64,000 bases of DNA from a virus (IMGVR_UViG_3300027733_000032); one strand, 5' to 3'. Shown: positions 6,941 through 32,873, counted from the stretch's first letter. The notes: generated by a model not told the origin, from the letters alone. A program made the numbers and translations.

Positions 6941-7284
6941 TGGTAAGAAAAGCGGAAAAAGCAGAGCATCCTAACCGTCTTTATAACGTTGTTCTTAGGG
7001 TAAGAGGCTCTATGAAAAACGACATGTTGAGAGCCGCCAAGAAACATGACATGTCTCTTTCTGAATATGTTCTTTATTGCGTCTGGGAACATATTCGCTC
7101 AGAGCGCGGAATCCCGACCCCTGGGTCTGCTCAGTTTTCTATGCACACGCCGATACAGGAGATTCAGGCGTACTTGCGTGGGGAGCAATTATTAACTCCC
7201 TGCGGACAGAAGGAATGCAATATGAAGTTGATAGAGTTTCAGAATATGACGTTTTGCAACACTTGCAATGTGAGGATTGAATGA
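6940..7284 (+). CDS. RHH-like protein with C-terminal Cys cluster
   Basis: NVVLRV...AAKKHDMSLSEYV, then PCGQKEC...FCNTC. Confidence 0.6.
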   Translation: MVRKAEKAEHPNRLYNVVLRVRGSMKNDMLRAAKKHDMSLSEYVLYCVWEHIRSERGIPTPGSAQFSMHTPIQEIQAYLRGEQLLTPCGQKECNMKLIEFQNMTFCNTCNVRIE

Positions 7285-7712
7285 TTGAGTTAATTGAAAA
7301 TGGAGACATCTTTGACGGCAAGGCAGATGCTTTTTGTCATGGCGTGAACACCAAGGGTGTCATGGGTGGGCTTGCTGGCGAAATCGCAAAACGATTTCCA
7401 GACTTGGCACACCTGTACGAGGCAATGTGCGAACTTCGTCAGTTGGATGGGGGAGATATTCTTCCTGTGTTTTTTGACAAGTGGTGGATTTATAATCTCG
7501 TCACACAAATTGAACCTGGCGCTGATGCTCGATTGGATTTAATTGAGGAAACAGTAGTGAAGATGATTGAACACGCACAAGTGAACGGCGTTAAATCAAT
7601 CAATGTCCCTAAAATAGGTTCAGGTATAGGTGGCCTCAAGTGGGATGACGTTCTATCCGTAATAACTAAAGTGGGAGAAGATTCTCCGGTTGTTCTTCGG
7701 GTGTGTATTTAG
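7281..7712 (+). CDS. Macrodomain (ADP-ribose binding/hydrolase)
   Basis: NGDIF, HGVNTKGVMGG, AKRFP, IYNLVTQ, PKIGSGIGGLKW. Confidence 0.9.
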   Translation: MIELIENGDIFDGKADAFCHGVNTKGVMGGLAGEIAKRFPDLAHLYEAMCELRQLDGGDILPVFFDKWWIYNLVTQIEPGADARLDLIEETVVKMIEHAQVNGVKSINVPKIGSGIGGLKWDDVLSVITKVGEDSPVVLRVCI

Positions 7713-7744: not shown

Positions 7745-10700
7745 TTAAATGGATTTTTTGTTTTTCCCAATTTGTTCTCTAGTTTGACTCATGTTTTCAT
7801 TTTGTGAACGTTCTCGGCCCAATTGGCTAGGGCTATTCCATTTTCTGTAATCGTTGCGTGTTAGACCTGCTTCAACCCTAATCTCCCGAACTGTAGTCTT
7901 GCCAATGCCAAGTTCTCGTGCTATTTCTGTGTCAACTTTACCCAATTTATGAAGTGCAATAATTTTTTTGTTTCGTGCCACCACCGACGCTGGTATTCCT
8001 GCCTTTCCCCATTTCCCCGTTGCGGCCTGCCCTGCTTTTAAATTTGATGGAATATTATTATTTATTCGATGATTACGGATTGCGCCCCTAGTAACGCCGA
8101 GTTTTTCTGCTATTTGAATATCACTCATCCCGTAAGCAAGCATTTCAAATATCTGTTGTATCTGTTCGTCAGTTAGGCGATTATTGCCTGTTGGGGGAAT
8201 GTTGTTTTTTATTCGAAATTGACGAACCGCACCCATTGTTACGCCAAGTTTTTTCATTATTTCACTATTTCCTGCCCCATCAGCAAGCATTTCAAGCATC
8301 TGTTGTTTTTGTTCGTCAGTTAGGCGAGTACGTGAACTCATTCCACTAATAATTTTGTTTTTATCTGGTCGTGAACTCAAATTTTCTAAAGTGGATTTGA
8401 GGACAAATTCATAACGGTCCTTAGATGCTTCTTTCTCTGCTCGTAGTAATAGTTCTGGTGAAACCTCGGTCAACTTAATTGAACGAGTTGACGTGCTGCG
8501 AACGCCTTCCCTACTTGTGTTTTCAGCGTCTAGAAGTGCGATGAGTTCTCTGGTGGAGCCATCAAATGCGTGGTTAAATTCGCCGAACCTAATCTTTCCT
8601 AGGAGGTCTACAACGCCTTGAAGTTCTTCACTGGTTTCCCTTTCGGGGTACGTTTGCTTAAATATTTGAGGAATTCCATACTCTCCTAGCCAATAGAGTG
8701 CCATAGCATCGCGCTCTTCTTCTGTAAGGTCGAGTAAGTCGCTATCTAAGATAAAAGATGTGATGGCCATGGCGTTCGCCCACTCGCCATGTCTATCAAA
8801 ACCACGACCAGTACCAAAGTGGCCCAGAATGTCGTGCTCTATATCCGGGATTGCACTGCCCCTTGCTGGATTTAGCAGAAGACCCACATATTGCTGGACC
8901 CAAGAGCCGTCAAGGTTTTTGTATTCTTGATATTTCTCAGATAAATCATGACCTTGTAATTTTCTTATAATATCCCTAAATTGTTTTTCGAATTTTTCCC
9001 TGGCTTCCTCAGTCGCGCGGTGGTCTCGCCCTACACGGAATTGATTTGTATAGGAAGTGTCTTTTGGGCTTTTAATTTTATACTTTAATTGAGGAAGGAT
9101 GCTTGCCAAATACTCTACGCTTGGTGCTTCAATTTCTGACCAATCCCTATTTGGGAGAATTGAACTTATGGTTGGATGTGGTTGAGCAAAAATGACGGGT
9201 ATACCGTTGGACGAAACTTTAATTGAAATTGACTTAATCGCTTCTTTGGTTTTTTCGTCTATTGGCGTAGTCGGGTTGTCAGACAAAAGATTTTTAATTT
9301 TATCTATTGTTTTTTGCCTTGTAGCAAATGTTGAATTATTCTCGTCCTCATAAATTTGAAGAAGTGCTTGTCTTGCTGCGTCTTTTTCTGTTTCATTAAG
9401 TTCTAGTTCGTCAAGAATCTCCTCAAAGTCTCGCCCGTCTAAAATGGGATAAGTATCGGTACGTGAACTCATTCCACGACGACCACGTGCTTCTTCTGTT
9501 TCGCGAAGTATGCGGTCAATAGGGTCTTCATTTGTAACACGAGGACGACTCTGTTCTCTTGCCGTGCGGTCTGGCTGACCACCTCTGCCTCTGGCTTGTC
9601 GTTGAGGGCTAGAAACAGGTCCGTATAATTCGTCCCACTCACGCATTTGGGCGTCGACTGCATTTTGGTTATCAGGACTTGGGTCCGTGTAGAGTTTTAT
9701 GCCAGAAATACCGCGAACTCGCACTAATTGAGGTCCAATGAGTTCCGTTCTGATTATTCGGTCATCTTCATCTGCGTAAACAAGAGTTGTCCCTGGCTGA
9801 AGTTTTATCTTCTCATCTGGCGCAAGTTCAATTGGACGGAACCGTTCTTTCTCAGAATCTGTCATATCGCGTCGTCGCGAACTCATGCCACCAACACTAG
9901 TTAAATTAGTATAAATATCATTATCTAGTGATTCTCTTAGAATTTTTTGTCTTGCGTCCTTACTTTGTTTTTTAATTTCACCATCTTCATCAAATCGGAA
10001 GAAGTGTCCTTGTATTTCCCAAACTAATTTTGGTCGACCAAAGCCTTCGTATAGTTCTACGACTGTTTCAATTTGGCTAGGCGTAAGTTTTTCTATTTTT
10101 GCATCAAGGTTTAGGTGTGCTCCTTCTCCTTGTATTGTGACGCGCGCTGTATCCAGGCGGAGAATGCCGTCTTTGAAAGAGTTAATATAATTATGTTCGT
10201 CGCCATGCCAAAATACTGGATATATTTCTCCATCCGGATAAATCCAGGCACCACGATATGGAACTTTCACGAATTCTCGGGCCGAGATGAAATCTCTATT
10301 CATCGGTCTTTTATTTGCGCCTTTTATACGCCCTGTGTTTTCAAAAAGTTTTCTTAGTCTGAGCATTTCTCTTGCCTGATTTAAAACAAATTCTTTTTTT
10401 TCATCATCTAAGGCAAATTTGTCAATGGCATCAATTATTCGTTCAAGTTCTGGGGAATCATAATTTAGTGGGTTTTCCCTTATCTTGTCTCGTTTATACA
10501 TAAAAACTTTATTCAAATCATTAAGTCCTGCTTGACTCAATAAATTGTTGCCTTTTTTATCTTTTAATCTAATTTCAGAATCAGACAATTCAAGATTCAT
10601 GTCAAGAATGTCGAATAATGGACCCCACTTTTCTTTAAATTGTCTATTGGTTATTTTGTCTAATAATTTTTCTTGACGAGTAGTTTCTTCTTTAATAAAA

Positions 10701-12718
10701 TTAATTCGACTAGTGCTACTCAAGCCAAGTGGTGTTGGTATAAGTTTTCCAGGACGTGCTGGCTTAAAGCCCGCTTGACCAGAGCCACGACTTAAAGGTT
10801 CTCCGAATTTACCAATTTCCTTAGGTATGGATACGCCTTTTGAAAGTTTGAGCATTTCGTCATAGATTTCTTGGCGTTTTTTAACGTTCTTCTCATCACG
10901 ATACTTTTCATAAAGAGGTGTAAGTTTATTTTTTAATCGATAAGAAGATGGCGTATGGAATTGGATTTCATAAAAGAATCCGTCAGGATGGTCCACCATT
11001 ACGTTAATACCCTTGTAGGGGTCTCCTGACGTCCAGTAATTTGTCACCGATGCATTGTGCCCCTTCTTGGCCAAGGCAGAGATGACACCAAGAACGTCGT
11101 TTGTATATTTATTCACATCATCTGATTCAAATGTATAACGCAATGGGTCGTTCATTGACGTAATTGAGTCAGTGAGGTCTCCATCGAACAGGTTTTGCAA
11201 GCGTTGAGCCTTCAGGGCAAGTGATTCGACTGGTTTTTGTCTGTTTTTAAGACCACGCAAGTAAAGACTTGAGCCCTTTTTGTCGGCGAGACCCTTCATC
11301 ATTTGTGTTAGTTCAGGTTCATGTTGCGAAACAAACTTCATGAATTCTTGCGCTTCCTTTACGGCACGCTGAGAAGCAATATTTGATTTACCTACAGAAC
11401 GCAAGCCAGCGATAATTGGTGAACTTGGCAATGATGGACGCATCCATGGCGTTGCGTCTTGAACTAGACCATCATTATCAGCATCAATTGCGTCTGGGTC
11501 ATAAATTTGTACGGAGTTAATGGCACGTAGGGCAGGACCAAGTGCTTTTTCTGTCATGTACTTGTCGGCAATTCGCTTAATTGTATTTTTAATTGACTGT
11601 CTACGTGATTCAAAACCATCACCAGCCAACTCCGCAATTTTCTCAATCGGGTGCATGGATATTATTGGCTTCTTTTTATCGCGATAAGAAATTTCTTCTT
11701 CAATATCCTTGAGCCACTCCAGGTATTGCTCTGCATCTTCTCGCGATTTAAACTTGCCAAGATGTTCCCCATTTTTTGAAAAATAGGAAGAAGCGTTAGA
11801 TTGCTCTATTGTCTGCCCAAATTTTGTTATTAGCGGAACAATAATAAACATTCCTGCCTCGTCGCCAGAACCGTCAATTATGATTGGCTCAATAAGTGCC
11901 AAACTTCCATTTTGTTTTTCAATTGGCTCCCTATTGTCGATATCTAGATTCCCGGGAATAAAAGGTTTTACGGGTGGGTCGCCACCATATGACGGCGCAT
12001 TGGTAATTTCATTTAGTTTTTCTTTATTTGGAGAAAATGCTTGTTCTAATGGTTCCGTACTGACCATGCGGTCTTTTTCTGATGATGTATCAGAAAAAAC
12101 TTTTGGTGCATCAGGATTATTTGCAACTTCTTGAACGCTCGGCCCAAGTGTCTTTGAACGTGTTTTCTTGGAGGCATTAGCCGCCCTTTGTGTGTTTGCT
12201 ACGAATTGCTTACCTGTCTTGTCTCCCGCTAGTTTTTTGGCAATTGTCGCTCGTCTCTGAGAGGGGGTGAGTCGTTTCCATGCTGCCGCTGGGAGATAGC
12301 GGGTCATCCCACCTTTTCTTCGTGCAGGCTTGCCGTCCGAGGTCGTCCATCGTTCGCTTGTCCATTTTTTCAAAGAACGCTGGGTCCTACCAGGCTTGCC
12401 TCTATAGCCTCCACCAGCACGACGGTATGCTTGCGCTACGAGTTGTGCTTTTCGAGCAGACCACTGGCCCGGTCGACCGCCATCCGAACCAGCCATGATT
12501 CGCCGTTTGATTGTTTCGCGTAATTGTGGACGAGTGTATGGGATTTGTTTAATACCAAAACTGGGCTCGGTATCCCCTGCGTCATCTAGGAAATCTTTAG
12601 TTGCCTTTTCAACCCATCCAGGGGTGCTTCCATAGGCGCTGCGAGAAGAAGGGACCCTAAAGTTGCTTTGGCTTAATCGAGGCCGACCATTTCTATCCGT
12701 ATGTTCAACTTCTTGCAT
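7745..12718 (-). CDS. Large modular (polyvalent) protein: DUF5872-like basic domain, RelA/SpoT-type nucleotidyltransferase domain, zincin-like segment and C-terminal HTH repeats
   Basis: ATG at 12718 has a GGAG SD. Motifs: GQWSARKAQL; RQK..SL..K, DPLRYT, YKGIN, EIQFHT; EHDILGHFGTGRGFDRHGE; RLTDEQ..HTH x2. Confidence 0.85.
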   Translation of the reverse strand: MQEVEHTDRNGRPRLSQSNFRVPSSRSAYGSTPGWVEKATKDFLDDAGDTEPSFGIKQIPYTRPQLRETIKRRIMAGSDGGRPGQWSARKAQLVAQAYRRAGGGYRGKPGRTQRSLKKWTSERWTTSDGKPARRKGGMTRYLPAAAWKRLTPSQRRATIAKKLAGDKTGKQFVANTQRAANASKKTRSKTLGPSVQEVANNPDAPKVFSDTSSEKDRMVSTEPLEQAFSPNKEKLNEITNAPSYGGDPPVKPFIPGNLDIDNREPIEKQNGSLALIEPIIIDGSGDEAGMFIIVPLITKFGQTIEQSNASSYFSKNGEHLGKFKSREDAEQYLEWLKDIEEEISYRDKKKPIISMHPIEKIAELAGDGFESRRQSIKNTIKRIADKYMTEKALGPALRAINSVQIYDPDAIDADNDGLVQDATPWMRPSLPSSPIIAGLRSVGKSNIASQRAVKEAQEFMKFVSQHEPELTQMMKGLADKKGSSLYLRGLKNRQKPVESLALKAQRLQNLFDGDLTDSITSMNDPLRYTFESDDVNKYTNDVLGVISALAKKGHNASVTNYWTSGDPYKGINVMVDHPDGFFYEIQFHTPSSYRLKNKLTPLYEKYRDEKNVKKRQEIYDEMLKLSKGVSIPKEIGKFGEPLSRGSGQAGFKPARPGKLIPTPLGLSSTSRINFIKEETTRQEKLLDKITNRQFKEKWGPLFDILDMNLELSDSEIRLKDKKGNNLLSQAGLNDLNKVFMYKRDKIRENPLNYDSPELERIIDAIDKFALDDEKKEFVLNQAREMLRLRKLFENTGRIKGANKRPMNRDFISAREFVKVPYRGAWIYPDGEIYPVFWHGDEHNYINSFKDGILRLDTARVTIQGEGAHLNLDAKIEKLTPSQIETVVELYEGFGRPKLVWEIQGHFFRFDEDGEIKKQSKDARQKILRESLDNDIYTNLTSVGGMSSRRRDMTDSEKERFRPIELAPDEKIKLQPGTTLVYADEDDRIIRTELIGPQLVRVRGISGIKLYTDPSPDNQNAVDAQMREWDELYGPVSSPQRQARGRGGQPDRTAREQSRPRVTNEDPIDRILRETEEARGRRGMSSRTDTYPILDGRDFEEILDELELNETEKDAARQALLQIYEDENNSTFATRQKTIDKIKNLLSDNPTTPIDEKTKEAIKSISIKVSSNGIPVIFAQPHPTISSILPNRDWSEIEAPSVEYLASILPQLKYKIKSPKDTSYTNQFRVGRDHRATEEAREKFEKQFRDIIRKLQGHDLSEKYQEYKNLDGSWVQQYVGLLLNPARGSAIPDIEHDILGHFGTGRGFDRHGEWANAMAITSFILDSDLLDLTEEERDAMALYWLGEYGIPQIFKQTYPERETSEELQGVVDLLGKIRFGEFNHAFDGSTRELIALLDAENTSREGVRSTSTRSIKLTEVSPELLLRAEKEASKDRYEFVLKSTLENLSSRPDKNKIISGMSSRTRLTDEQKQQMLEMLADGAGNSEIMKKLGVTMGAVRQFRIKNNIPPTGNNRLTDEQIQQIFEMLAYGMSDIQIAEKLGVTRGAIRNHRINNNIPSNLKAGQAATGKWGKAGIPASVVARNKKIIALHKLGKVDTEIARELGIGKTTVREIRVEAGLTRNDYRKWNSPSQLGRERSQNENMSQTREQIGKNKKSI
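8328..9477 (-). repeat. Exact 19-nt direct repeat encoding the GMSSRT linker
   Basis: GTACGTGAACTCATTCCAC at 8328-8346 and 9459-9477. Confidence 0.9.
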
Positions 12719-12740
12719 AAATTCTCCCAAGTGAGCGGGA

Positions 12741-13118
12741 TTAATTCATCTTCACGACGCCGTCGGGAATGACAGCGAATCGGCATTTTCCTTCTGGTTC
12801 AACGGGCATCGCTATAATCTTGCAGGAACCTCCACCCTCCCATAGGGTGCAATTCGAGCACTTTACTCCAATGTCTTTTTTGTTATTCTCAGCCGCCGAC
12901 TTATATCCAGCCCAGACTCCGGTGGCATCCTCGTTGAATTTTCCGTATTTCTGAGTTATAGCAATGAGAAAATCGGCCAATTCGTGTTCCTGTGGGTCAA
13001 GTTTGGCAGCAGTCAGGGCTACGGGGAGAGGGGAGGACGCTGTTAGGGGCGTTGATTCGACGACGAGGCTGACTTTACCGTTGAGTATTTCTTGAATAGT
13101 AGAAGGCTTCTGTTCCAT
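12741..13118 (-). CDS. Protein with a C-terminal HiPIP-like 4-Cys domain
   Basis: GY...GVKCSNCTLW....SCKII..PVEPEGKC matches the Y..C-x2-C..C..P.G.C spacing of short HiPIPs. Confidence 0.65.
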   Translation of the reverse strand: MEQKPSTIQEILNGKVSLVVESTPLTASSPLPVALTAAKLDPQEHELADFLIAITQKYGKFNEDATGVWAGYKSAAENNKKDIGVKCSNCTLWEGGGSCKIIAMPVEPEGKCRFAVIPDGVVKMN

Positions 13119-13562: not shown

Positions 13563-13864
13563 TAGCCACCCCACATTTGGGCCAATGTCGGCCTAGTAGG
13601 AGATATCCCCCTGCGCCGCTGCTCTGCTGCTAATTGCCTACTTGTTAGACCGGCCCAAACACCATGCATGTCTGCTGGCGGAAACTCAAGAGCATATTCA
13701 AGGCATCTAGCCTTTACTGGACACTCAGAACATAGTGCCCTGGCCTCAACAATATAGGTAATGTCTTTGTGTTCTTTTGGGAACATCAAATTACCCTTAC
13801 CCTTACATGAAGCATCTTTCATCCATTGGTGGTCACTGATTCCAAATGGTGGGAAATCATTCAT
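13562..13864 (-). CDS. whiB: WhiB-family Fe-S transcription factor
   Basis: W...ASC...FP...A.ALCSECPVKARCLEYAL...GVWAGLTSRQ: four Cys plus the GVWAG turn. Confidence 0.95.
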   Translation of the reverse strand: MNDFPPFGISDHQWMKDASCKGKGNLMFPKEHKDITYIVEARALCSECPVKARCLEYALEFPPADMHGVWAGLTSRQLAAEQRRRGISPTRPTLAQMWGG

Positions 13865-14496
13865 GTACTTTTTTTCCTAGACTGTATTGTGTTTTCGTCC
13901 TGATGGTAAATGGCATACGGCGGACCTGTGTGAGGGTCGTATTTCGCCGTAATGGACATCGCTTTCAGAACGTGTTTTTTTGCTACAGCAAGTGAGAATG
14001 GGCGAGGCGGCATTAGTGCAGAAAGGGAACCGAGCGCATACTGTAATCCGCTTCCTATTGAGTACATGCCGCTTGAGTCAATTGACCACGCGTAATCATT
14101 TTCTATTTGATAAATTGTTCTATTGACAACAACCAGCATTTCGGAACCATGTTCCGCCAAGTGTTGGGACGCTTCCCTCGGAGGCGGCGAATATCCATTT
14201 GCATCAAAACACTCGCGCAATGCAGGAGTGAATTTATTTGTAACAAACTCATCAAGTTTCTTTCCCTTAAGTCCTGGAGCGGGCTGAGGAGGTTGAAACG
14301 AGTAATTTATGAGATTTATAGCGCGAAGGTCGCCTGCGACACCAACTAAGATATTGCCAATTTGAGCAATCTTCGAGATTCCCGCAGCGAGCGTTTGAAT
14401 TCGAGAAACATATCCCTCATCATCAATGCTTGAGATGCGACTATCGGAACACAGAACAGCAAAACCATCCCCCTGAATTCCGATAATTGTTGTCAT
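13861..14496 (-). CDS. Proteasome beta/HslV-like Ntn protease
   Basis: N-terminal MTTIIG, SDSRIS, catalytic-type Lys (SKI), SIGSG. Confidence 0.85.
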   Translation of the reverse strand: MTTIIGIQGDGFAVLCSDSRISSIDDEGYVSRIQTLAAGISKIAQIGNILVGVAGDLRAINLINYSFQPPQPAPGLKGKKLDEFVTNKFTPALRECFDANGYSPPPREASQHLAEHGSEMLVVVNRTIYQIENDYAWSIDSSGMYSIGSGLQYALGSLSALMPPRPFSLAVAKKHVLKAMSITAKYDPHTGPPYAIYHQDENTIQSRKKST

Positions 14497-18780: not shown

Positions 18781-18960
18781 CTACTCGTCAGATGGTTTGA
18801 TGATTGCAATGAGCAGATGTAGCAATAAAGCAAATATAAATATCTGAATTCCTTGAGATTTTGTTGGTCCACTGAGAGTGATAAGAACCAAGATTGTCCC
18901 TGCCACTGTCCAGTTCAAGCCGTCAAGAATATTTAGTAATTTTTTAAAGTATTTTTTCAT
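18781..18960 (-). CDS. Small two-TM protein (59 aa, not in the ORF track)
   Basis: MKKYFKKLLNILDGLNWTVAGTILVLITLSGPTKSQGIQIFIFALLLHLLIAIIKPSDE*; TAATG coupling to the large surface protein. Confidence 0.7.
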   Translation of the reverse strand: MKKYFKKLLNILDGLNWTVAGTILVLITLSGPTKSQGIQIFIFALLLHLLIAIIKPSDE

Positions 18961-21900
18961 TATTTCCTCTTTCCAGTATTTTTGTTTTTGTTATCAGTTG
19001 CGGCGACAGGGCCACTACTTGAAGGGGTAGGTGCTGGCTGTGGCAGCATTGTCATCGTTAAGCCAGCAGCGGCGATAATGACACGACGAGTACTGACGGG
19101 GACGTTTGACCCAACAGGGACATAGGTGTCTACGTTGCCTGCAGAAAAAATGTCAATTTCACTCTCAAAAGCAGCCTTGACTTCGGTTGGAGCATTTTGA
19201 ACTGCCTCAACAAGAGCCGCCGCTTCTTCGTCGGTAATCTCCGAAATAGGAACTTCAGCAAAAATTTCTGAAGCCTGGTCACCCGTGATAGATTGCAGAA
19301 CTTCGCCACTCGTAGCAATACTCACAGCCTGTGATTCAGTGATTCCATTGTCAATAATGGAGGTAACGGCTGATTGGACTTGCTCATCAGTAACACTGTC
19401 GCCACCCAAAACATCAACCAACTCATCAAATGCAGCATCTGAAATTGGTTCATCTAAAATGGCATCGATAACCGAGTTAAATGCTTCATCGCTTAATGGT
19501 TCCTCAAAAATAGTATTAAGAACCTCAGCAAATGCTTCATCACTAATATCTGCTGTGAAAACCTGGTCTACTACAGCGGCTATTTCTTGGTCGGATAAAT
19601 CTTGACTAAAAACTTGGTCAACAAGTTCCGTTAATGCATCGTCTGATAAATATTGACTAAATACTTCAGCAACGACAGAAGCGAATTCTTCAGAACTTAA
19701 GTCCGATGCTAATAACGCACTAGCGACGCTTACTAATTCTTCCTCAGAGTCAGTATTGCTTAAAGCATCACTAACTGCATTGCCTAGTTCTTCAGGAGAT
19801 AGGTCACCTGAAAGAATGTCTCCAACAACCTCTTCTGCAGTTGGTGTTTCTTCTACCGGTATGTCCGGGGTTGTAGTTGTCGTTTCTTCTTCTGGGGCTG
19901 ATTCAGGTACGGTTGCTTCGGGTGACGTTGTGTCTTCGGAATCTCCGGTTCCTCCATCAGTGCCTCCATCGGTAGTATCTGGGGTTGTATCTATTGTATC
20001 TTCTGGTTCTGTATCGGGAGGTAAAGTAACTGGAAGTTCAGTTGTTGTTGGTTCCTCTGTTGTTGTAGGTGCTTCAGTTGTCGTCGGAGCCTCTGTAGTT
20101 GTGGTGGTTGGTGCTTCTGTTGTTGTGGTGGGAACTTCTGACGTAGTTGTTGTCGGAACTTCAGTTGTCGTTGTCGTAGGTGCTTCTGTTGTAGTAGTTG
20201 GGTTTGGGTCGTCTCCGTATTTGAGAACTATTGCGTATGTTTTTGCGGTGCCGCTACATGGGTCGCCAAAAGTAGAATTGTCAAACGTTAAACTTCCATT
20301 ACTTTTTCCAATGAATTCTTCAACAATGATTTGGTTTGATGTTTCTGCATGGCATGAACCTTTTTGGTATTGGCCATCAGTGCCCGTCGGGTTTCCGTAA
20401 CTAGCAAACAAAACTTCTGTAAATATTTTGCCTTCTGGAACAAATACTAGAATCGAATCACCCTCGGAGCCTGTTCGCCAAATTACATTTTCCGGCAATT
20501 CATATGGAGGGCTAGTTGTTGTTGTCGGAGTTTCTGTTGTAGTTGTCGGTACTTCTGTGGTCGTAGTCGTACTTGTCGTAGTTGTAGTGGTAGTAGTTGT
20601 TGTGGTTGTAGTTGTTGTAGTGGGCGTTTCTGTGCCAAGTAATTTAATGTAATAGCCACACCATTCACTACCCCACGTATAGGTTGAGACACCATTTGCA
20701 ATGCTGCCATCGTAGGATGAGTAGTTGTCTATTAGATATGGCTCAATGACCGCGGTCTCGCCGACTTCAATTAATCCTGCATGAACAGCAGCGGCAGCGA
20801 ATGTTGAATCATCCGTGTATGGTCCAGAACCCCATACGGCTCCTCCGGTAGACCCAGTTACAGTGAAGGCTCTGTATGGACCACACCCATTGCTTCCACC
20901 AATCAACGGCAAGGTAGTGGTGGTAGTTGTAGTGGGCGGAGTTGGGTCAAGAACAATTGCGTCTGCGTTTGTGCTTGGACCATATAAACAAGAGCCTTCG
21001 CCAACTCCAGCACAGGGTCCGTTCATTGCGTAGACCTTAAAACGAACAGGACCGTATCCGGTTGTGACTGGGTTGCTGCCATCGAACATCCAGTGACCAA
21101 GCGAGTAAGTAGTGTTTGCGACCTCTGTCGAAACACCCCAGCCGCCACGCTCAACGCCATCATCAAAGTCAACAAAGTTAATTGAGTAGCCGTAGATTTC
21201 GGTATTACTTGCAACTGGTGCATCCCACGCAAGATTGACGCTTCCGTCTTCATTTGCTGTTGCCGTCAAGTTTTGAACTGCATTGAAATAAGGAGCAACG
21301 ATTACTATTTCTTCATCGGCACCTAAATCACATATTGAAGAAGACTGCAATAAGGTACAGGTGTCATCTCCGCCCTCGCCGTAAAATAACGACTCTTCGC
21401 TGAGTGTTGAAACGGTGTCGTCACCATATCCACCATAAAACACCGAATACCACATTTGAGTGACAGTGTCGTTTCCTGCGCCACCCCAAAAATAGTCTTT
21501 CGTCCCACTATTAGAGTCAAGGTTGGGTGATTGATTGTTTTGACTGTTTCCACAATAGACATCTGGGCGATTCCCGTAGTCTTCTCCGAAGTTGCCGGAA
21601 CCAGAAGCAATATACACACCCCATGTACCAGCGTTGTATGCAGTAATGAACGTTGCTTCGGTATTGAGTCCAGTGGCGGAAAGAATTGACTGCTTGGTTA
21701 CTAAAGCATCATCAATATTATTGACGCATAAATCCAAAATACTAAGTTCATAGTTTGTGTGATATGGCGCATTTTCTCTATCTACACACAATGTGGATGT
21801 GTAGAGACCCTGGCAAGTATCCCATGCTGTATTTGTGTAGAGAGTCCAGTCATCTGGGGCGTTGTCCGTTACGTCATTGAAGTCGTAGTTGGTTAATTGC

Positions 21901-22415
21901 TCGTAAGTTGTTCCGTCACTTTTTGTTCCAATGAGGCTCACGTAGTCCACTATTGGCCCGTAGTTCCCGCCCCACCCTTCGCTATCTTGCCCATATACAG
22001 AGACCGCAATATGTTTAATATCCGACCACGCAATACCGGACGGAAGACCTGCATTTGTGGGGTTGATTGTGTATGTGGATACTTGATAATCGGCCAATAA
22101 AGTGATGTTGCCCGATTCAGGGTATCTAACCGTACTTAATGTTGACCATGCGTCATCATAGAGAGTAATTTCGGAGTATAAATTATCTGGTCCGTAAGCC
22201 CCATATCTCGCCTTAATAGAAAACGTCAATGACGAGTAATTAGAAATGTTTTCGGTATCGATTTGTTGACGAATATGGTTGGATGTATAGGAAAATCTGA
22301 CAACACCATTTGAATAATCATCAGCATAAACACGGGCCTGACTAGGCGCAAACCACGCCACAAGAGCGATAATCCAAAATATCCATTGCCCCTTACGGGT
22401 GCCCCTTTTTCGCAT
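18960..22415 (-). CDS. Large secreted/membrane-anchored mucin-like protein with FN3, LCCL and SUEL/Gal-lectin domains
   Basis: Signal peptide ending VYA; VWGSGPYTDDS..AAAVHAG (LCCL); FASYGNPTG..GSCH..FGDPC (SUEL); poly-Thr/PTTT linkers; acidic helical repeats; C-terminal hydrophobic segment and basic tail. Confidence 0.85.
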   Translation of the reverse strand: MRKRGTRKGQWIFWIIALVAWFAPSQARVYADDYSNGVVRFSYTSNHIRQQIDTENISNYSSLTFSIKARYGAYGPDNLYSEITLYDDAWSTLSTVRYPESGNITLLADYQVSTYTINPTNAGLPSGIAWSDIKHIAVSVYGQDSEGWGGNYGPIVDYVSLIGTKSDGTTYEQLTNYDFNDVTDNAPDDWTLYTNTAWDTCQGLYTSTLCVDRENAPYHTNYELSILDLCVNNIDDALVTKQSILSATGLNTEATFITAYNAGTWGVYIASGSGNFGEDYGNRPDVYCGNSQNNQSPNLDSNSGTKDYFWGGAGNDTVTQMWYSVFYGGYGDDTVSTLSEESLFYGEGGDDTCTLLQSSSICDLGADEEIVIVAPYFNAVQNLTATANEDGSVNLAWDAPVASNTEIYGYSINFVDFDDGVERGGWGVSTEVANTTYSLGHWMFDGSNPVTTGYGPVRFKVYAMNGPCAGVGEGSCLYGPSTNADAIVLDPTPPTTTTTTTLPLIGGSNGCGPYRAFTVTGSTGGAVWGSGPYTDDSTFAAAAVHAGLIEVGETAVIEPYLIDNYSSYDGSIANGVSTYTWGSEWCGYYIKLLGTETPTTTTTTTTTTTTTTTTSTTTTTEVPTTTTETPTTTTSPPYELPENVIWRTGSEGDSILVFVPEGKIFTEVLFASYGNPTGTDGQYQKGSCHAETSNQIIVEEFIGKSNGSLTFDNSTFGDPCSGTAKTYAIVLKYGDDPNPTTTTEAPTTTTTEVPTTTTSEVPTTTTEAPTTTTTEAPTTTEAPTTTEEPTTTELPVTLPPDTEPEDTIDTTPDTTDGGTDGGTGDSEDTTSPEATVPESAPEEETTTTTPDIPVEETPTAEEVVGDILSGDLSPEELGNAVSDALSNTDSEEELVSVASALLASDLSSEEFASVVAEVFSQYLSDDALTELVDQVFSQDLSDQEIAAVVDQVFTADISDEAFAEVLNTIFEEPLSDEAFNSVIDAILDEPISDAAFDELVDVLGGDSVTDEQVQSAVTSIIDNGITESQAVSIATSGEVLQSITGDQASEIFAEVPISEITDEEAAALVEAVQNAPTEVKAAFESEIDIFSAGNVDTYVPVGSNVPVSTRRVIIAAAGLTMTMLPQPAPTPSSSGPVAATDNKNKNTGKRK

Positions 22416-27187: not shown

Positions 27188-27639
27188 CTCCTGATAGGAT
27201 ATCTTTCATGACAAAAACTACCGACAGGTTCTGGAGCAAAGTAGATATCGGTTCTCGTGAGGAGTGCTGGCCATGGCGTGCATTTACCCATAAAGGATAT
27301 GGCATATATCGGGATGATGGGAAAAAAGTTAGGGCGCATCGATATTCTTTCTTTATTCACAACGGCTTTTATCCGCCAGTCGTGATGCACGCCTGCGATA
27401 ATCCGCCTTGCGTCAATCCAGCGCACCTACTGGCGGGAACACCGGCTTTGAACACCAGAGACATGATGGCCAAAGGTAGACATGTTGAACCCAACTCCAG
27501 CAAAACACACTGCCCGACGGGTCACGAATACACAGAAACAAACACTTACGTGTATCCATCGGGCGCGCGTAAATGTCGCACCTGTCGCAACGAACAAAGT
27601 CGTATACATCGTGCAAAGAAAGTTAAGGAAAATACTTGA
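27184..27639 (+). CDS. Free-standing HNH homing endonuclease
   Basis: RFWSKV...ECWPW...GYG...AHR...VMHACDNPPCVNPAHL..N; C-terminal HCPTGH..CRTC; overlaps both neighbours. Confidence 0.9.
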   Translation: MTPDRISFMTKTTDRFWSKVDIGSREECWPWRAFTHKGYGIYRDDGKKVRAHRYSFFIHNGFYPPVVMHACDNPPCVNPAHLLAGTPALNTRDMMAKGRHVEPNSSKTHCPTGHEYTETNTYVYPSGARKCRTCRNEQSRIHRAKKVKENT

Positions 27640-28718
27640 GATTCCACATCGTTTCCCTACCACACACGAACACCACCGAAGACTTCACCGCCTGTGCTTA
27701 CACAGAGAAGGTGCGCAAGTTCTGTATCATGATGAAAAATCTCGGACACACCGTATTTCTCTATGGCGGCGAGTTCAATGAAGCACCCTGCGATGAACAC
27801 ATCGTCTGCATTACCGAGGAGCAACGACTAAAGGCCGTTGGTAACAACCACTACTCTGCGGCGTCATTTGACTGGAACCTGCCTCATTGGGTTGAGTTCA
27901 ACGGCAACGTCATCAAGGGCATTCAAGAACGCCTAGAACATAAAGATTTCATCTGCCTCATAACTGGATATGCCTCTAAGCCAATTGCTGATGCTTTTCC
28001 CAACGAACTGAGCGTGGAGTTTGGGATTGGATATGGCGGGTGGTTTGCTAACTACAAGGTGTTTGAGTCCTATGCATGGATGCATGCCTGTTACGGGTCT
28101 AAAGTTACTGACCCTCACACTCTTGACGGCAAATTCTTTGACACCGTTATCCCAAGTTATATCGACGTTGACGACTTCGCCCTACAAGAAGAACCCGACG
28201 ACTACTACCTATACATAGGTCGACTGACGGAGCGTAAGGGTTATCAGGTTGCTGTAGACGTATGCAAGGCACTTGGTAAGCGTTTAGTGATTGCTGGTCA
28301 AGGAACTCCACCTTCTTACGGTGAATATGTGGGCGTAGTTGGGACTGAAGAGCGTTCAAAACTCATGGGTGGGGCAATCGCTACCTTCACTCCAACCATC
28401 TATGTCGAACCTTTTGGCACCGTTGCTATAGAAGCAATGGCATGTGGTTCTCCTGTGATTTCTACCGATTGGGGAGCATTTACGGAGACTGTCATTGATG
28501 GCGTCACTGGATTCAGGTGTCATACTTTGCAAGAATTTATGGATGCTGCGGAGGCGGCAAAACACCTTGACCGCAAGGCAATAAGCCAGTACTCCAAGGA
28601 CCGCTACGGCCTCGATACGGTGGGGCTTATGTATGAGAAGTATTTTACGCGGCTACAAACCCTCTGGGGTAAGGGTTGGTATGAACTCAATAGTAGCCCT
28701 CCAGTTGAAGAAGACTAA
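27636..28718 (+). CDS. GT-B (GT4-like) glycosyltransferase
   Basis: YIGRLTERKG, LVIAG, EPFGTVAIEAMACGSPVISTDWGAFTE. Confidence 0.9.
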   Translation: MRFHIVSLPHTNTTEDFTACAYTEKVRKFCIMMKNLGHTVFLYGGEFNEAPCDEHIVCITEEQRLKAVGNNHYSAASFDWNLPHWVEFNGNVIKGIQERLEHKDFICLITGYASKPIADAFPNELSVEFGIGYGGWFANYKVFESYAWMHACYGSKVTDPHTLDGKFFDTVIPSYIDVDDFALQEEPDDYYLYIGRLTERKGYQVAVDVCKALGKRLVIAGQGTPPSYGEYVGVVGTEERSKLMGGAIATFTPTIYVEPFGTVAIEAMACGSPVISTDWGAFTETVIDGVTGFRCHTLQEFMDAAEAAKHLDRKAISQYSKDRYGLDTVGLMYEKYFTRLQTLWGKGWYELNSSPPVEED

Positions 28719-29065: not shown

Positions 29066-29685
29066 GTGCCTTTGATTCCATTCTTTTTCTGATACTCATG
29101 TCTAGCACGAGCAACTTCATGTAAGTGGGACGGACCCTTGGTAAAATACCAATGTTCTGGTTCGGCAAAATGAAAGAAAATCATTTGCACTTCATTGTTC
29201 GCTGGGTCAGGGAAACTTTCGCGCCAATGGTATTGGTCCTCACCGTAATAACAAACCGCTTGGTTTGGTTCTGGTAACATCTCTTGTTCTTCAACATAAA
29301 TAGGCCACTGAGTCTTATACGAGAGACATAAGTCCATTGTGTAGGTACAGGCATTGTCGTCGACATGGCTTGGGAGTTGCGCCCTAAAGCCACGATAGGA
29401 AACCCACAAACAGTATGTCGGCTTTAATGTTGGGCTAAATGTAGACCTGGCTTTGTCTAATAAAATTTTGTGGTATTCCCTAAGTGGCGATTCAGTTTTA
29501 TCTGTGCTATTTATACCAAATCTACCTAAAGATGGTTCATAGGAAATAACTTTGGTTTCTTGCAGCAAAGATAAATCTTCATTCAATTTAGTAAACACAG
29601 ATGGCTCAAAAACTTCATCAACAATAAATGCCGGAGGTCTTCTATATAAAGTCCGATTTGTTAGTGGGTCATAGTAGGTGTTCAT
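29062..29685 (-). CDS. 2OG-Fe(II) oxygenase
   Basis: LPSHVD (HxD), YGEDQYHWRE, IFFHF. Confidence 0.75.
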   Translation of the reverse strand: MNTYYDPLTNRTLYRRPPAFIVDEVFEPSVFTKLNEDLSLLQETKVISYEPSLGRFGINSTDKTESPLREYHKILLDKARSTFSPTLKPTYCLWVSYRGFRAQLPSHVDDNACTYTMDLCLSYKTQWPIYVEEQEMLPEPNQAVCYYGEDQYHWRESFPDPANNEVQMIFFHFAEPEHWYFTKGPSHLHEVARARHEYQKKNGIKGT

Positions 29686-30352
29686 TACCTAAAGACCCTC
29701 CATTGTCAATCATGTCAAGAGACTGATTTTCACTATTTTCCAATATGAACGTACTGACAATCCATTTATCATTAGAAATTGGCACGCACCCTTGATGTGG
29801 ATGTGTCCAATATGCTGGAAATAATGCTATAGACCCAGCCTTGGCAGGCACATAGACGTCTTGCTGACGAAAATATGTTTCTCCCCCAGTATCTACGGTA
29901 TTGAGATAAACAACAGCACCAAGAATACGATTCAGGACAACGGTGGGGACCGGTCCACCATCAATATGCTCGCGATAAAACCCCTTACCCTTAATATATC
30001 TTTGCATCCTGAATCCCGTATCACACATTCCTGGCCATTCCCATAACCACTTGAATTGTTCCTGATAATACCCAACAGCAGAAAATATTGCGTTAGAAAC
30101 TTCTAGTTCATAGGAATAGAGTGGTTCTATTGGGACGTTCTTTTCGGCAAGATTTGAGGTAGACCAACTCATATCCATGGTATTTTTAATATTTGGCATA
30201 ACGCCGCTAAGGACTGGTCCTGGAGAGAATAATTTCTCGTAATACTTTGATGATTCTTCAATAATAGAAGAACAAATTTCTTCATTAAGAATATTTTCGG
30301 CAACCATAATTGCAGATGATTTACCTGCTGGCCAGCAAAATTCGATGGTCAT
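29669..30352 (-). CDS. 2OG-Fe(II) oxygenase (prolyl-4-hydroxylase-like)
   Basis: QRY..G.FY.EHID, YLN..GGET.F, FPAYWTHPHQG, KWIVST. Confidence 0.9.
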   Translation of the reverse strand: MTIEFCWPAGKSSAIMVAENILNEEICSSIIEESSKYYEKLFSPGPVLSGVMPNIKNTMDMSWSTSNLAEKNVPIEPLYSYELEVSNAIFSAVGYYQEQFKWLWEWPGMCDTGFRMQRYIKGKGFYREHIDGGPVPTVVLNRILGAVVYLNTVDTGGETYFRQQDVYVPAKAGSIALFPAYWTHPHQGCVPISNDKWIVSTFILENSENQSLDMIDNGGSLGNEHLL

Positions 30353-30616: not shown

Positions 30617-31432
30617 TCAGTCGTTTCGTCTCATTATTTTATCAACAAATGTTTTCTTTTGTGTGGCTAACTCTGAATCTGCGTCACGTTGCATTTTTTT
30701 ATATTTGCTTTTTTGTTTTTTGGGCATGAAGCCGCCTCCAAATCCTCTGTGTCTGAGGAGATTGTAGGCACTTGAGTTCCCCCATAGGAGTTCTGATTCT
30801 TTAGTTCTCTTAAATGGTATGACGTGCCACATTGGGCGTCCGATTTCAAGTTCAAAAGGCTCGTTAGTTAATACGTTAATAACCATATGTGCATTATGAT
30901 AATAATCTGTATTAACTACTGCTGGGAGCATTGTGTAGTTCGGATTTGGGTTCCAGAGTGGGGGTAGGAATAATGATGACCAACCTGGAGGAGTTTTTAC
31001 TAACCAAGGGTTGATGACTTTAATGTAATTTGATTCTTGAAGTTTCCGTGCTTTTGAAACAGGACATTCACCTGTTTGTGAATACATGAAACTTTCAATA
31101 CCAAAGTCGCCACAATCAGTAGTTAAATCAAATCTGGCATCCCAGTTTTTGCCATTCAAAGATGGGCGAATCATTAATTTTGCCCATAGGGGAATTGTAA
31201 AACCTGTTGCAAGATAGTCGGAGGTACCCGAGCATCTCTTCAAACTTCCATCTGAGCCACTTAATTCTTTCCACCATTCAGGCCAATTCCCATTATTGGC
31301 ATATGGACGACATGAATCATCCATCAAATTAGGGTCAACGCAAGAAAGAAACACTTGATTTTTCTTCAATTTTGGTAAATCATGAAAAATGTCCGGTTTA
31401 ACTATTTGCAGTTTTTCTGAGCGCTTCCGCAT
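30617..31432 (-). CDS. Hypothetical enzyme-like beta protein (DUF6065-like) in the tailoring cluster
   Basis: C.G..DYL..GF.IPLW; K.INPW...TPPGWSSLFLPP; P.VVNTD.Y. Start reassigned to MRKRSEK at 31432. Confidence 0.55.
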   Translation of the reverse strand: MRKRSEKLQIVKPDIFHDLPKLKKNQVFLSCVDPNLMDDSCRPYANNGNWPEWWKELSGSDGSLKRCSGTSDYLATGFTIPLWAKLMIRPSLNGKNWDARFDLTTDCGDFGIESFMYSQTGECPVSKARKLQESNYIKVINPWLVKTPPGWSSLFLPPLWNPNPNYTMLPAVVNTDYYHNAHMVINVLTNEPFELEIGRPMWHVIPFKRTKESELLWGNSSAYNLLRHRGFGGGFMPKKQKSKYKKMQRDADSELATQKKTFVDKIMRRND

Positions 31433-32873
31433 GGTCCACCAATTTCTGGTTAATGAGTTCCGATGATATTTGTGAAATATTCTTTCTAGAAGATTCACGA
31501 GAATTGTATGCTTCCAATTGTATTGACGCAACTTCTTTATTAAGTACTCCCTGCCCTTGCGCTACATGCCACAAATGTGCTGGACCGAATAGTTCAAAAC
31601 CCGTTGATGGGATGTCGTGATGTTCTGGACATCTGGTATTCCATAATTCAAGGAGGTGTTGCAGAAGGGCAGGTTTTTCTGCTTTTTGCTGTTCCGCCCA
31701 CATAGGAGTATCACTCCTATCTGAAACATAATGAAGTGAAATCATACAAAGGATATTTTCCATGATTGAATCCATAACACGATGGTATTCCTTGATTCCG
31801 TATGTTCTTTCACGAGAAAAAGTTGGAAGATATGAGCAGATGAGGCGAGCCTGTTGGATTGTTGTAGAAATTGATGTTGCTTCAAGGGGTTCCACGAATG
31901 AGGCCGCCAACCCGACTGCAACACAATTATTTTTCCATGTAGTACTAAAATATCCTGATTTGAAATTGAGCGTTTTTGCTGGTTCTACTTCAAATCCATG
32001 AATTTCTGATGCTTCCTTAACTGCTTCATCTGCCGAGCAGAAATCTGATGAGAAAACATATCCATTTCCACGACGTTTTTGAGTTGGTATTTCCCACATC
32101 CAACCATTTTTTAACGCTCTTGCGCGTGTGTACGGTTTAATCTGTCCGGATTCTTCCGACTGTGTTGGGAAAGCGATAGCACTGTCGCAAGGAAGATATT
32201 TTCGATATGAAATAAAATCATCTTTAGAAATCTTGCTCAGAATTTCACGATTAAATCCTGTTGCATCAATAAAAAAATCGCCATCAATAAAGTCGTTAGA
32301 TGAATCTATTTTTACATGTTGAATAAAACCTGATTCATCTACACCTATATCTGTTACTTCACCATCAATAAAGTGAATTTTTCTTTCTTTGGCAATACTT
32401 GTTAAATATGTATTTAATTTGAAAGTATCAAAATGATATTGATTCGTTCCTAAATGCGTTTTTTCTCCAGCATCAATGATTTTATTCTCTACTAAACCAC
32501 GCCAAGAAAAAGTACTTGTCAATGGCCAGTCATTCTCTAGAGCGTGGGCATATCCACCCCAGAATGTTCCTGCACTTAAACCAGTTCCACCAACACTATG
32601 GAAATAGTCTGGCGTATGATTTGTCCAATTCTCATATCTGATTCCATATTTGTGTGTAATATCAGCATTTTTAATCATGTCATGAACATCTATGCCAATA
32701 GAATCTTGAAAATGACGCCAATGTTCCGTTGAACCTTCGCCAACTCCAACAATTCCTTTTGCGCTAGAAAAAACCACTGTTACTTCATAACTTTTAAAAT
32801 AATTTTTAATAATTAATGCCGTAACCAAGCCTGCTGTTCCAGCACCAATAATAACTATTTTTTTACGGTTCAT
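31398..32873 (-). CDS. Flavin-dependent tryptophan-halogenase-family protein
   Basis: GAGTAG, GVGEGST, HKYGIRYENW (catalytic Lys), FIDATG, GWMWEIP, FVEPLEATS. Confidence 0.92.
   Translation of the reverse strand: MNRKKIVIIGAGTAGLVTALIIKNYFKSYEVTVVFSSAKGIVGVGEGSTEHWRHFQDSIGIDVHDMIKNADITHKYGIRYENWTNHTPDYFHSVGGTGLSAGTFWGGYAHALENDWPLTSTFSWRGLVENKIIDAGEKTHLGTNQYHFDTFKLNTYLTSIAKERKIHFIDGEVTDIGVDESGFIQHVKIDSSNDFIDGDFFIDATGFNREILSKISKDDFISYRKYLPCDSAIAFPTQSEESGQIKPYTRARALKNGWMWEIPTQKRRGNGYVFSSDFCSADEAVKEASEIHGFEVEPAKTLNFKSGYFSTTWKNNCVAVGLAASFVEPLEATSISTTIQQARLICSYLPTFSRERTYGIKEYHRVMDSIMENILCMISLHYVSDRSDTPMWAEQQKAEKPALLQHLLELWNTRCPEHHDIPSTGFELFGPAHLWHVAQGQGVLNKEVASIQLEAYNSRESSRKNISQISSELINQKLVDHAEALRKTANS

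Follow-up and report, generated by a model that had tools for sequence, protein, structure and literature searches.

A cassette-built giant protein of a freshwater phage with a lineage-specific joint peptide at its module borders

Known cargo proteins and the present locus

Polyvalent proteins, which are encoded by phages and conjugative elements, are mosaic in build and have been predicted to be delivered along with the DNA and to undergo processing into units (Iyer, Burroughs, Anand, de Souza, Aravind 2017, PMC5512222). The subject of the present analysis is a polyprotein gene on the minus strand at positions 7745-12718 of a 64,000-nucleotide stretch of DNA (IMGVR_UViG_3300027733_000032; the whole stretch is referred to here as the window) from an uncultured freshwater phage. 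Its product of 1657 amino acids (aa) and the relatives of that product resemble polyvalent proteins in being phage-encoded, very large and extensively mosaic, with many unrelated anti-host domains; the polyprotein itself comprises nine modules (A to I from the N-terminus), an alarmone synthetase and helix-turn-helix repeats among them. The family can be assigned to the polyvalent-protein class because the cassettes of the relatives include NUDIX, Zeta toxin, pentapeptide repeats, RNase T, GNAT and DUF3626 domains and, in P0035, ArdC-N and MPTase-PolyVal. Of the hallmark domains of the class (MPTase zincin, ArdC-N, MuF and DarB-type), MPTase and ArdC-N are thus represented in P0035, while none was found in the polyprotein, in which Pfam gave no match to MuF, MPTase or ArdC-N and which holds no HExxH motif. 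Unlike the described polyvalent proteins, these giants carry a short lineage-specific peptide, here termed the joint, at every module border, neither the word 'linker' nor a recurring junction peptide being present in the text of PMC5512222, and their family is defined by a conserved leader (module C) together with a hallmark module (module G).

For MuF polymorphic toxins and Apk2 (PMC12226406), the likeness resides in an adenosine 3'-pyrophosphokinase-type toxin domain, which is present in the polyprotein as module D. However, no N-terminal MuF/SPP1 gp7 domain was found, and module D is internal, being one of nine cassettes. MuF toxins had been mentioned, as carriers of swappable effector domains, in an earlier note on this DNA, which was made from the sequence alone; as a correction, the polyprotein has no Phage_Mu_F domain match. 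An adjacent immunity gene is a further trait of MuF toxins; the neighbours of the polyprotein encode a four-cysteine (4-Cys) protein and, convergently, a macro-domain protein, and no immunity gene was recognised next to it. A further likeness is to the exported alarmone synthetases (PMC12691689), as module D matches the SaEAS structure 8VX3.

With respect to maturation by a prohead protease, the type system is HK97, the capsid protein of which is cut at K103/S104 by the S78 protease (PMC10275583), the cut-site sequence being NK/SLGS with the slash marking the cut. Relatives of the polyprotein are fused to S78 or appear to be coupled to it by frameshifting, and the leader motif K-[ASTQG]-L-G resembles the HK97 site, as do KTLGP and KALGP in the polyprotein; on the other hand, the G-hydrophobic-x-S joints do not resemble that site and are absent from the capsid proteins. 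The internal and ejection proteins of T4, phiKZ and SPN3US are likewise reported as head-packaged cargo that is cut by the prohead protease at a short phage-specific motif (PMC5694885, PMC10052503). They are encoded by many individual genes, each product having one or a few sites, whereas the giants unite dozens of modules in single chains with a repeated joint.

Joints and cassette exchange

A peptide of the form G-[MLV]-[SR]-S occurs six times in the polyprotein, as GLRS at aa 442 (joint 1, 11396-11407), GLSS at aa 669 (joint 2, 10715-10726), GMSS followed by RR at aa 948 (joint 3, 9878-9889), GMSS followed by RT at aa 1086 (joint 4, 9464-9475), GVRS at aa 1409 (joint 5, 8495-8506) and again GMSS followed by RT at aa 1463 (joint 6, 8333-8344), all on the minus strand. 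Residue numbers are those of P0001, which is translated from the first TTG of the open reading frame (ORF; minus strand, 7745-12730, from the ORF list and translation), and numbering from the ATG is lower by 4. The six matches to G[MLVI][SR]S compare with 0.28 expected from residue shuffles (Poisson tail ~5e-7), and similar enrichment was obtained with residue shuffles of the relatives P0003 (10 versus 0.5 expected) and P0004 (8 versus 0.4). Joints 4 and 6 are embedded in an identical 19-mer, GTGGAATGAGTTCACGTAC, which has exactly two copies in the window (9459-9477 and 8328-8346, minus strand) and none in 100 shuffles. Two further motifs of the KxLGP type are found, at aa 193 (KTLGP, 12140-12154) and at aa 395 (KALGP, from 11548). 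Joint 1 is preceded by an acidic DxDxDG stretch, DPDAIDADNDGLVQD, at aa 411 (from 11500).

The joints sit at module borders, as judged from domain matches and structure models: known domains fit between them and the confidence of AlphaFold drops at three of them. The alarmone-synthetase match spans aa 450-641, between joints 442 and 669; the helix-turn-helix (HTH) repeats begin at aa 1464-1471, directly behind joint 1463; the leader module of the relatives stops at joint 1; and the basic DUF5872-like module stops at about aa 191, ahead of KTLGP. Model confidence falls at joints 948, 1086 and 1409. In the model of modules E and F, with a mean pLDDT of 55, the beta domain of F is confident and joints 3 and 4 have values of 25-45 (25-35 at joint 3); in that of module G, with a pTM of 0.80 from a 33-sequence alignment, the first 13 residues, which correspond to joint 4, are below 50 and the block at joint 5 is at 56. 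The joint peptide, G-[MLV]-[SR]-S-[RT], is thus short, of low model confidence and placed between confident or known domains.

Homologs of the polyprotein align to parts of it only, and the boundaries of the aligned stretches are located at residues 672, 948, 1092-1093 and 1463. Module exchange is clearest in the syntenic relative L001, which has the same flanking genes and a 2494-aa version of the protein and is 83% identical in DNA from the upstream flank through the last base of GLSS. Beyond this point homology disappears over different cassettes and sets in again with the first base of GMSS 948; a few codons past GMSSRT 1086, just after GMSSRTDT, it breaks off a second time, and it is back beyond the stop codon. 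The similarity to L001 therefore stops and restarts exactly at three joints, at nucleotide resolution. In P0004, a close relative, an additional cassette of ~260 aa is located between two GMSSR joints. Family-wide, 559 ends of BLASTP segments were compared with the joints, and 36% of them are no more than 10 aa away from one, as against 6% of random points, although the ends are partly non-independent.

Everything that the earlier note had seen in the polyprotein sequence is confirmed by this analysis: the six joints, both KxLGP motifs and DPDAIDADNDGLVQD ahead of joint 1 are present where it had placed them, and the exact 19-nt sequence of the two GMSSRT joints is unique to those two sites in the window. 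The placement of the linkers at domain boundaries agrees with the known domains and with the fall of AlphaFold confidence at 948, 1086 and 1409, the per-segment structure prediction that the note had suggested having put joints 3, 4 and 5 in low-confidence stretches. The homolog alignment that it had also called for revealed swaps that break exactly at the linkers, in L001 to the nucleotide, and its proposal of an effector polyprotein made of swappable cassettes is borne out by the exchanges at joints in L001 and P0004.

The joint across lineages and its possible reader

The analysis covered 120 family sequences and 66 loci, and an IMG/VR scan contributed 53 loci with ORFs of up to 4433 aa. 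These are rare giants (1.3-4.4 thousand aa) of WhiB-bearing phages, in which a leader near the N-terminus is usually followed by variable cassettes, by module G in one to three copies and, at the C-terminal end, by a DUF5872-like module. The most frequent four-residue word of each lineage is its joint: GFAS with 9-12 copies per protein, GLAS with ~10 copies per protein, GMSS or GMRS in the polyprotein's own lineage and close relatives, GSKS in L013, L019 and L020, STRS in L011 and L065, RLSSG in L036 to L054, SSRS in L055 and L058, and SMRS in P0058. The homologous start of module G reads GFAS, GLAS, GLSS, GMSS, GSKS, GSRS or STRS depending on lineage, and the following R-[ST]-D is constant. 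Even within single lineages the underlying DNA is diverse, the joint 12-mers being all distinct for GFAS in L017 (12/12), LSSG in L036 (10/10), STRS in L011 (9/9) and a further lineage (7/7), and both serine codon families are used for the joint serines in lineages other than that of the polyprotein. Because nearly every copy in those lineages has different DNA, the peptide is what is selected, and the joint is accordingly a signal that is specific to each lineage and maintained at the protein level. That it changes in concert at many non-homologous sites points to a common, co-evolving reader, for which a protease is the simplest and most likely candidate. Within 10 kb, none of the neighbouring genes, those of the capsid among them, contained the joint peptide.

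In the polyprotein's own lineage, an additional feature is visible in the DNA. The first serine codon of [ML]SS is AGT in 13/13 joints of the window and L001 (about nine of them independent), as against a background of ~0.2, ATG AGT TCA is common at these joints, and the shared joint DNA, GGN ATG AGT TCN CG, extends to up to 19 nt. Joint DNA is homogenised here on top of the peptide-level constraint, which fits continuing recombination or gene conversion between joints. The idea of diversification by recombination at the linker DNA, put forward in the earlier note, is supported for this lineage, where joint DNA is homogenised and breaks fall at joints; the other lineages keep the peptide with differing DNA.

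Several relatives are located next to head genes, some of them between the gene of the prohead protease and that of the capsid. The order in L064 is terminase, portal, S78 prohead protease, giant, a 537-aa protein and a second giant, and the giants of L065, L066 and L011 lie directly upstream of the capsid gene. An S78 domain is in frame with the giant in L055, L057 and L058, where it is followed by E-V-E-V-K-A-L-G-G and the leader; in L058 (3746-17044), a single ORF of 4433 aa consists of an N-terminal S78 prohead protease and a giant cargo chain with eight SSRS joints. In L064 (9880-9900) and L030 (5032-5042), the S78 gene ends in A_AAA_AAA just before its stop codon, and the -1 frame is open across A_AAA_AAA into the giant and encodes K-Q-L-G-P and the leader, so that a programmed frameshift fusion of the protease to the giant is likely at these two loci and the annotated start of P0058 is probably wrong. 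The KxLG at the leader resembles the HK97 site and is by analogy a candidate prohead-protease site; the capsid proteins of the relatives have K-S-[IL]-G near residue 96, which is likewise similar to the HK97 site, although it was not placed there when these proteins were aligned with HK97 gp5.

The candidates for a reader of the joint are the S78 prohead protease, HE[W]GH zincin modules and module G. HE[W]GH motifs were found in 70 of the 120 family sequences, with one to three in each and usually in the first 650 residues (e.g. at aa 256 and 559 of P0010), and only one of the family's motifs is called MPTase-PolyVal by Pfam. For module G, the role of a peptidase is one guess of several. An HslV-like gene of the window (13861-14496, minus strand), the product of which starts with M-T-T-I-I-G like active HslV, had been named in the earlier note as a possible cutter; being present only in the window and L001 among the 66 loci, it is confined to the polyprotein's lineage and was rejected as the protease of the family. 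HslV-type peptidases favour hydrophobic residues before the cut, and actinobacterial hosts are generally not known to have HslU.

On balance, we lean slightly towards a cargo polyprotein of the polyvalent type, the joints of which would serve as recognition sites, most likely for a phage protease by which the modules are freed once the chain has been loaded into the procapsid or delivered into the host. The chain consists of nine cassettes, namely a DUF5872-like module, an unassigned module, the leader, an alarmone synthetase, two more unassigned modules, the hallmark module G, a mini-module and three HTH repeats. With the same peptide at both ends of every module, an in-frame exchange at any joint would yield a working chain, and the joint DNA shared within the polyprotein's lineage would permit recombination between joints by which cassettes are added, deleted or swapped. 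That this amounts to a lineage-specific proteolytic code, in which one short peptide per lineage stands at every border and is read by a co-evolving phage protease, has in our estimation an even chance of being correct. Capsid loading and cutting are indirectly supported by the relatives that are found in head operons or fused to S78 and by the protein-level, lineage-specific selection on the joint peptide.

A number of observations weigh against the cargo reading. The polyprotein gene is outside a head operon and terminates a minus-strand block of tail-fibre, lysis, phosphoesterase, HslV-like and WhiB genes; none of the window genes encodes an S78 prohead protease, and the linkage to S78 was not found for the polyprotein gene itself. 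In 38 relatives the giant adjoins a replicative AAA_25 helicase gene, because of which early expression without packaging is possible. As the capsid proteins of the relatives lack the joint peptide, there is no specific tie between the joints and the prohead protease, and a zincin would need to act in trans, as the polyprotein has no HExxH motif. The leader module is internal in the polyprotein, where an N-terminal position is usual, and all support for cutting is indirect. Some of these points suit a chain that is cut at its joints without being capsid cargo, that is, a host-takeover polyprotein processed in the infected cell by, for instance, the HslV-like peptidase. The location in one block with the WhiB, metallophosphoesterase and HslV-like genes (the last with its MTT start), the conservation of this synteny in L001 and the many relatives that adjoin replication genes are all compatible with such a role. 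The HslV-like gene is nevertheless restricted to one lineage in the 66 loci whereas joints are family-wide, and the polyprotein retains the leader that follows the S78 protease in the fused relatives, so that this explanation is considered rather improbable.

It is also conceivable, though unlikely, that the joints are flexible linkers which are never cut, the chain remaining as beads on a string with a peptide that is read by a kinase or another modifying enzyme, a chaperone or a capsid docking site. In favour of this, the joints are disordered, with an abundance of Ser, Arg and Thr, the polyprotein gene is without a linked protease across the family, and there is a precedent in phage N4, the virion RNA polymerase of which is of the polyvalent type and is packaged unprocessed (PMC5512222). 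A plain linker, however, has no need for its four residues to stay fixed while synonymous codons drift, or to change together at 8-12 non-homologous positions per protein, and the prohead-protease fusion of the relatives suits a cutting role better. Least probable by far is that the joints are only recombination scars or short-homology DNA sites with a functionless peptide. Even though the nucleotide-exact breakpoints, the exact 19-nt repeat and the AGT codon at 13/13 first serines would be expected of such sites, the peptide is kept in the GFAS, GLAS, RLSSG, GSKS, STRS and SSRS lineages while the DNA differs in almost every copy, because of which these lineages offer no homology to recombine on.

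If the cargo polyprotein and its joint code are real, double-stranded DNA phages would, like RNA viruses, possess a plug-and-play polyprotein system, with effectors that are freely exchanged since the joint alone governs processing. The mosaic nature of polyvalent proteins is known, and how they are disassembled and stay functional amid shuffling has only been guessed, with the MPTase domain proposed; a fixed joint at every border would explain both the disassembly and the tolerated shuffling. The joints provide a simple rule for excising thousands of uncharacterised effector modules from metagenomic giants, and a joint together with its reader might be used as a natural means of packing cargo into capsids and releasing it. 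In some cases a prohead protease is attached to ~3000 aa of cargo, through fusion or a likely frameshift, and the family also holds a confidently folded, metal-site-like module without a solved relative.

Modules, neighbouring genes and other observations

All modules are given here in chain order and lie on the minus strand. Module A (12155-12718) is basic and DUF5872-like, with matches to phrog_17747 and phrog_14910 and a weak match to DUF5872, and it is C-terminal in 13 relatives. Module B (11549-12154), which opens with KTLGP, has no Pfam match and is shared only with P0003, P0064 and P0068. Module C (11408-11548) is the conserved leader, running from KALGP through DPDAIDADNDGLVQD to RP. 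Its family consensus is K-A-L-G followed by F-D-P-x-A-x-D-G-D-G-D-G-x-V-Q-D-G-T-P-x-E-R-P, and it was found in 43 of the 120 family sequences, mostly near the N-terminus (usually at residues ~25-90 of the giants). As 45 of 76 KxLG sites are followed by DxDxDG, KxLGP is by these counts the start of a conserved leader module and not, as had been supposed earlier, a general linker motif. The presence of modules A and B before the leader, here and in P0003, gives the impression that the tail of one giant has been joined to the head of the giant behind it; giants in tandem occur in L011, L064, L065 and L066.

Module D (10727-11395, aa 446-668) is a predicted alarmone-synthetase toxin domain of the RelA/SpoT-type exported kind (Apk2, SaEAS and XopAD C-terminal type), supported by phrog_7625, 8VX3 and NCBIfam matches. 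It aligns with PDB 8VX3 at E 2.3e-8, EIQFHT being placed against EVQFHT (motif E-[IV]-QFHT), and thereby combines a match to a solved member with the conserved catalytic strand E-[IV]-Q-x-[HR]-T. Its identity to the C-termini of pneumococcal prophage MuF proteins is 35-37%, the phrog_7625 match covers profile positions 320-499 only, i.e. the toxin end, and the C-terminus of the XopAD/skwp type III effector is matched as well (NCBIfam NF041399, E 9e-24). Module E (9890-10714), which has a low-confidence AlphaFold model, is replaced by other cassettes in L001. Module F (9476-9877), present in 11 family sequences, consists of a small beta domain (pLDDT 75-88 at about aa 958-1038) and a disordered Arg/Gln-rich tail. 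Fold searches with modules E and F returned only generic helical matches.

Module G (8507-9463, aa 1090-1408), the family hallmark, has a confident predicted fold and the invariant pattern H-D-x3-H ... F-D-R-H-G-E, its invariant residues being H, D, H, D, R, H and E. There are 94 copies in the protein set, and the module is rare, with 47 clusters among 1.84 billion representatives, nearly all in proteins of 1300-3700 aa. The module looks like a metal site, and no match was obtained among solved structures: the best Foldseek hit in PDB had E 0.35, VIA-align against 48,161 chains reached Z 4.5 at best, a profile search of PDB sequences gave nothing below E 0.9, and the Atlas gave no usable match. 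The top match in BFVD was a 1390-aa 'head morphogenesis domain' protein (E 0.018). Mini-module H (8345-8494) has 50 aa, is flanked by two joints and accompanies module G in nine sequences, with analogous tails in other lineages. Module I (7748-8332) comprises three HTH repeats, with HTH_23, GerE, HTH_7 and DUF6115 matches at aa 1464-1650. A search of shorter proteins for stand-alone modules that open with MSSR gave fragments only.

The polyprotein starts at the ATG at 12718, with a Shine-Dalgarno sequence GGGAGA (12723-12728, minus strand) 5 nt upstream, and its stop codon is at 7745-7747. The ATG-based product, P0002 (1657 aa), is unchanged on 11 freshwater-lake metagenome contigs, the longest of which are 138-177 kb. 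At the joint ATG codons no consistent Shine-Dalgarno sequence was found upstream that would suggest internal translation starts, and promoter and terminator scans around the gene gave sites no commoner than in shuffles. Upstream on the same strand, the window contains tail-fibre (38-64 kb), VanY-type endolysin, WhiB, metallophosphoesterase and HslV-like genes, and downstream there is a convergent block of TauD, an unassigned gene and the macro-domain gene. The window is phage DNA, as it carries tail-fibre, endolysin and WhiB genes and its relatives are on IMG/VR viral contigs, and the hosts are probably actinobacteria because WhiB genes are present in 34 related loci. Isolated phages yielded neither a DNA match to the first 25 kb nor, in 50,697 records, a protein match to module G.

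Immediately upstream of the polyprotein, at a distance of 22 nt, a protein of 125 aa is encoded (12741-13118, minus strand), the cysteines of which form a cluster C-x2-C ... C ... C, and homologs of this 4-Cys protein are found immediately upstream of the giants in L041 and L056. The macro-domain gene (7281-7712, plus strand) is convergent on the 3' end of the polyprotein gene, a pairing that is kept in L001 and on the P0004 contig. Beside the endolysin, a 1151-aa protein (18960-22415, minus strand) has LCCL, SUEL-lectin and RTX-like matches. Further along the window, a tryptophan-halogenase-like gene (31398-32873, minus strand; phrog_2928, E 9e-100) is surrounded by auxiliary genes, which include a 2OG-Fe(II) oxygenase (29669-30352) and a glycosyltransferase (27636-28718).

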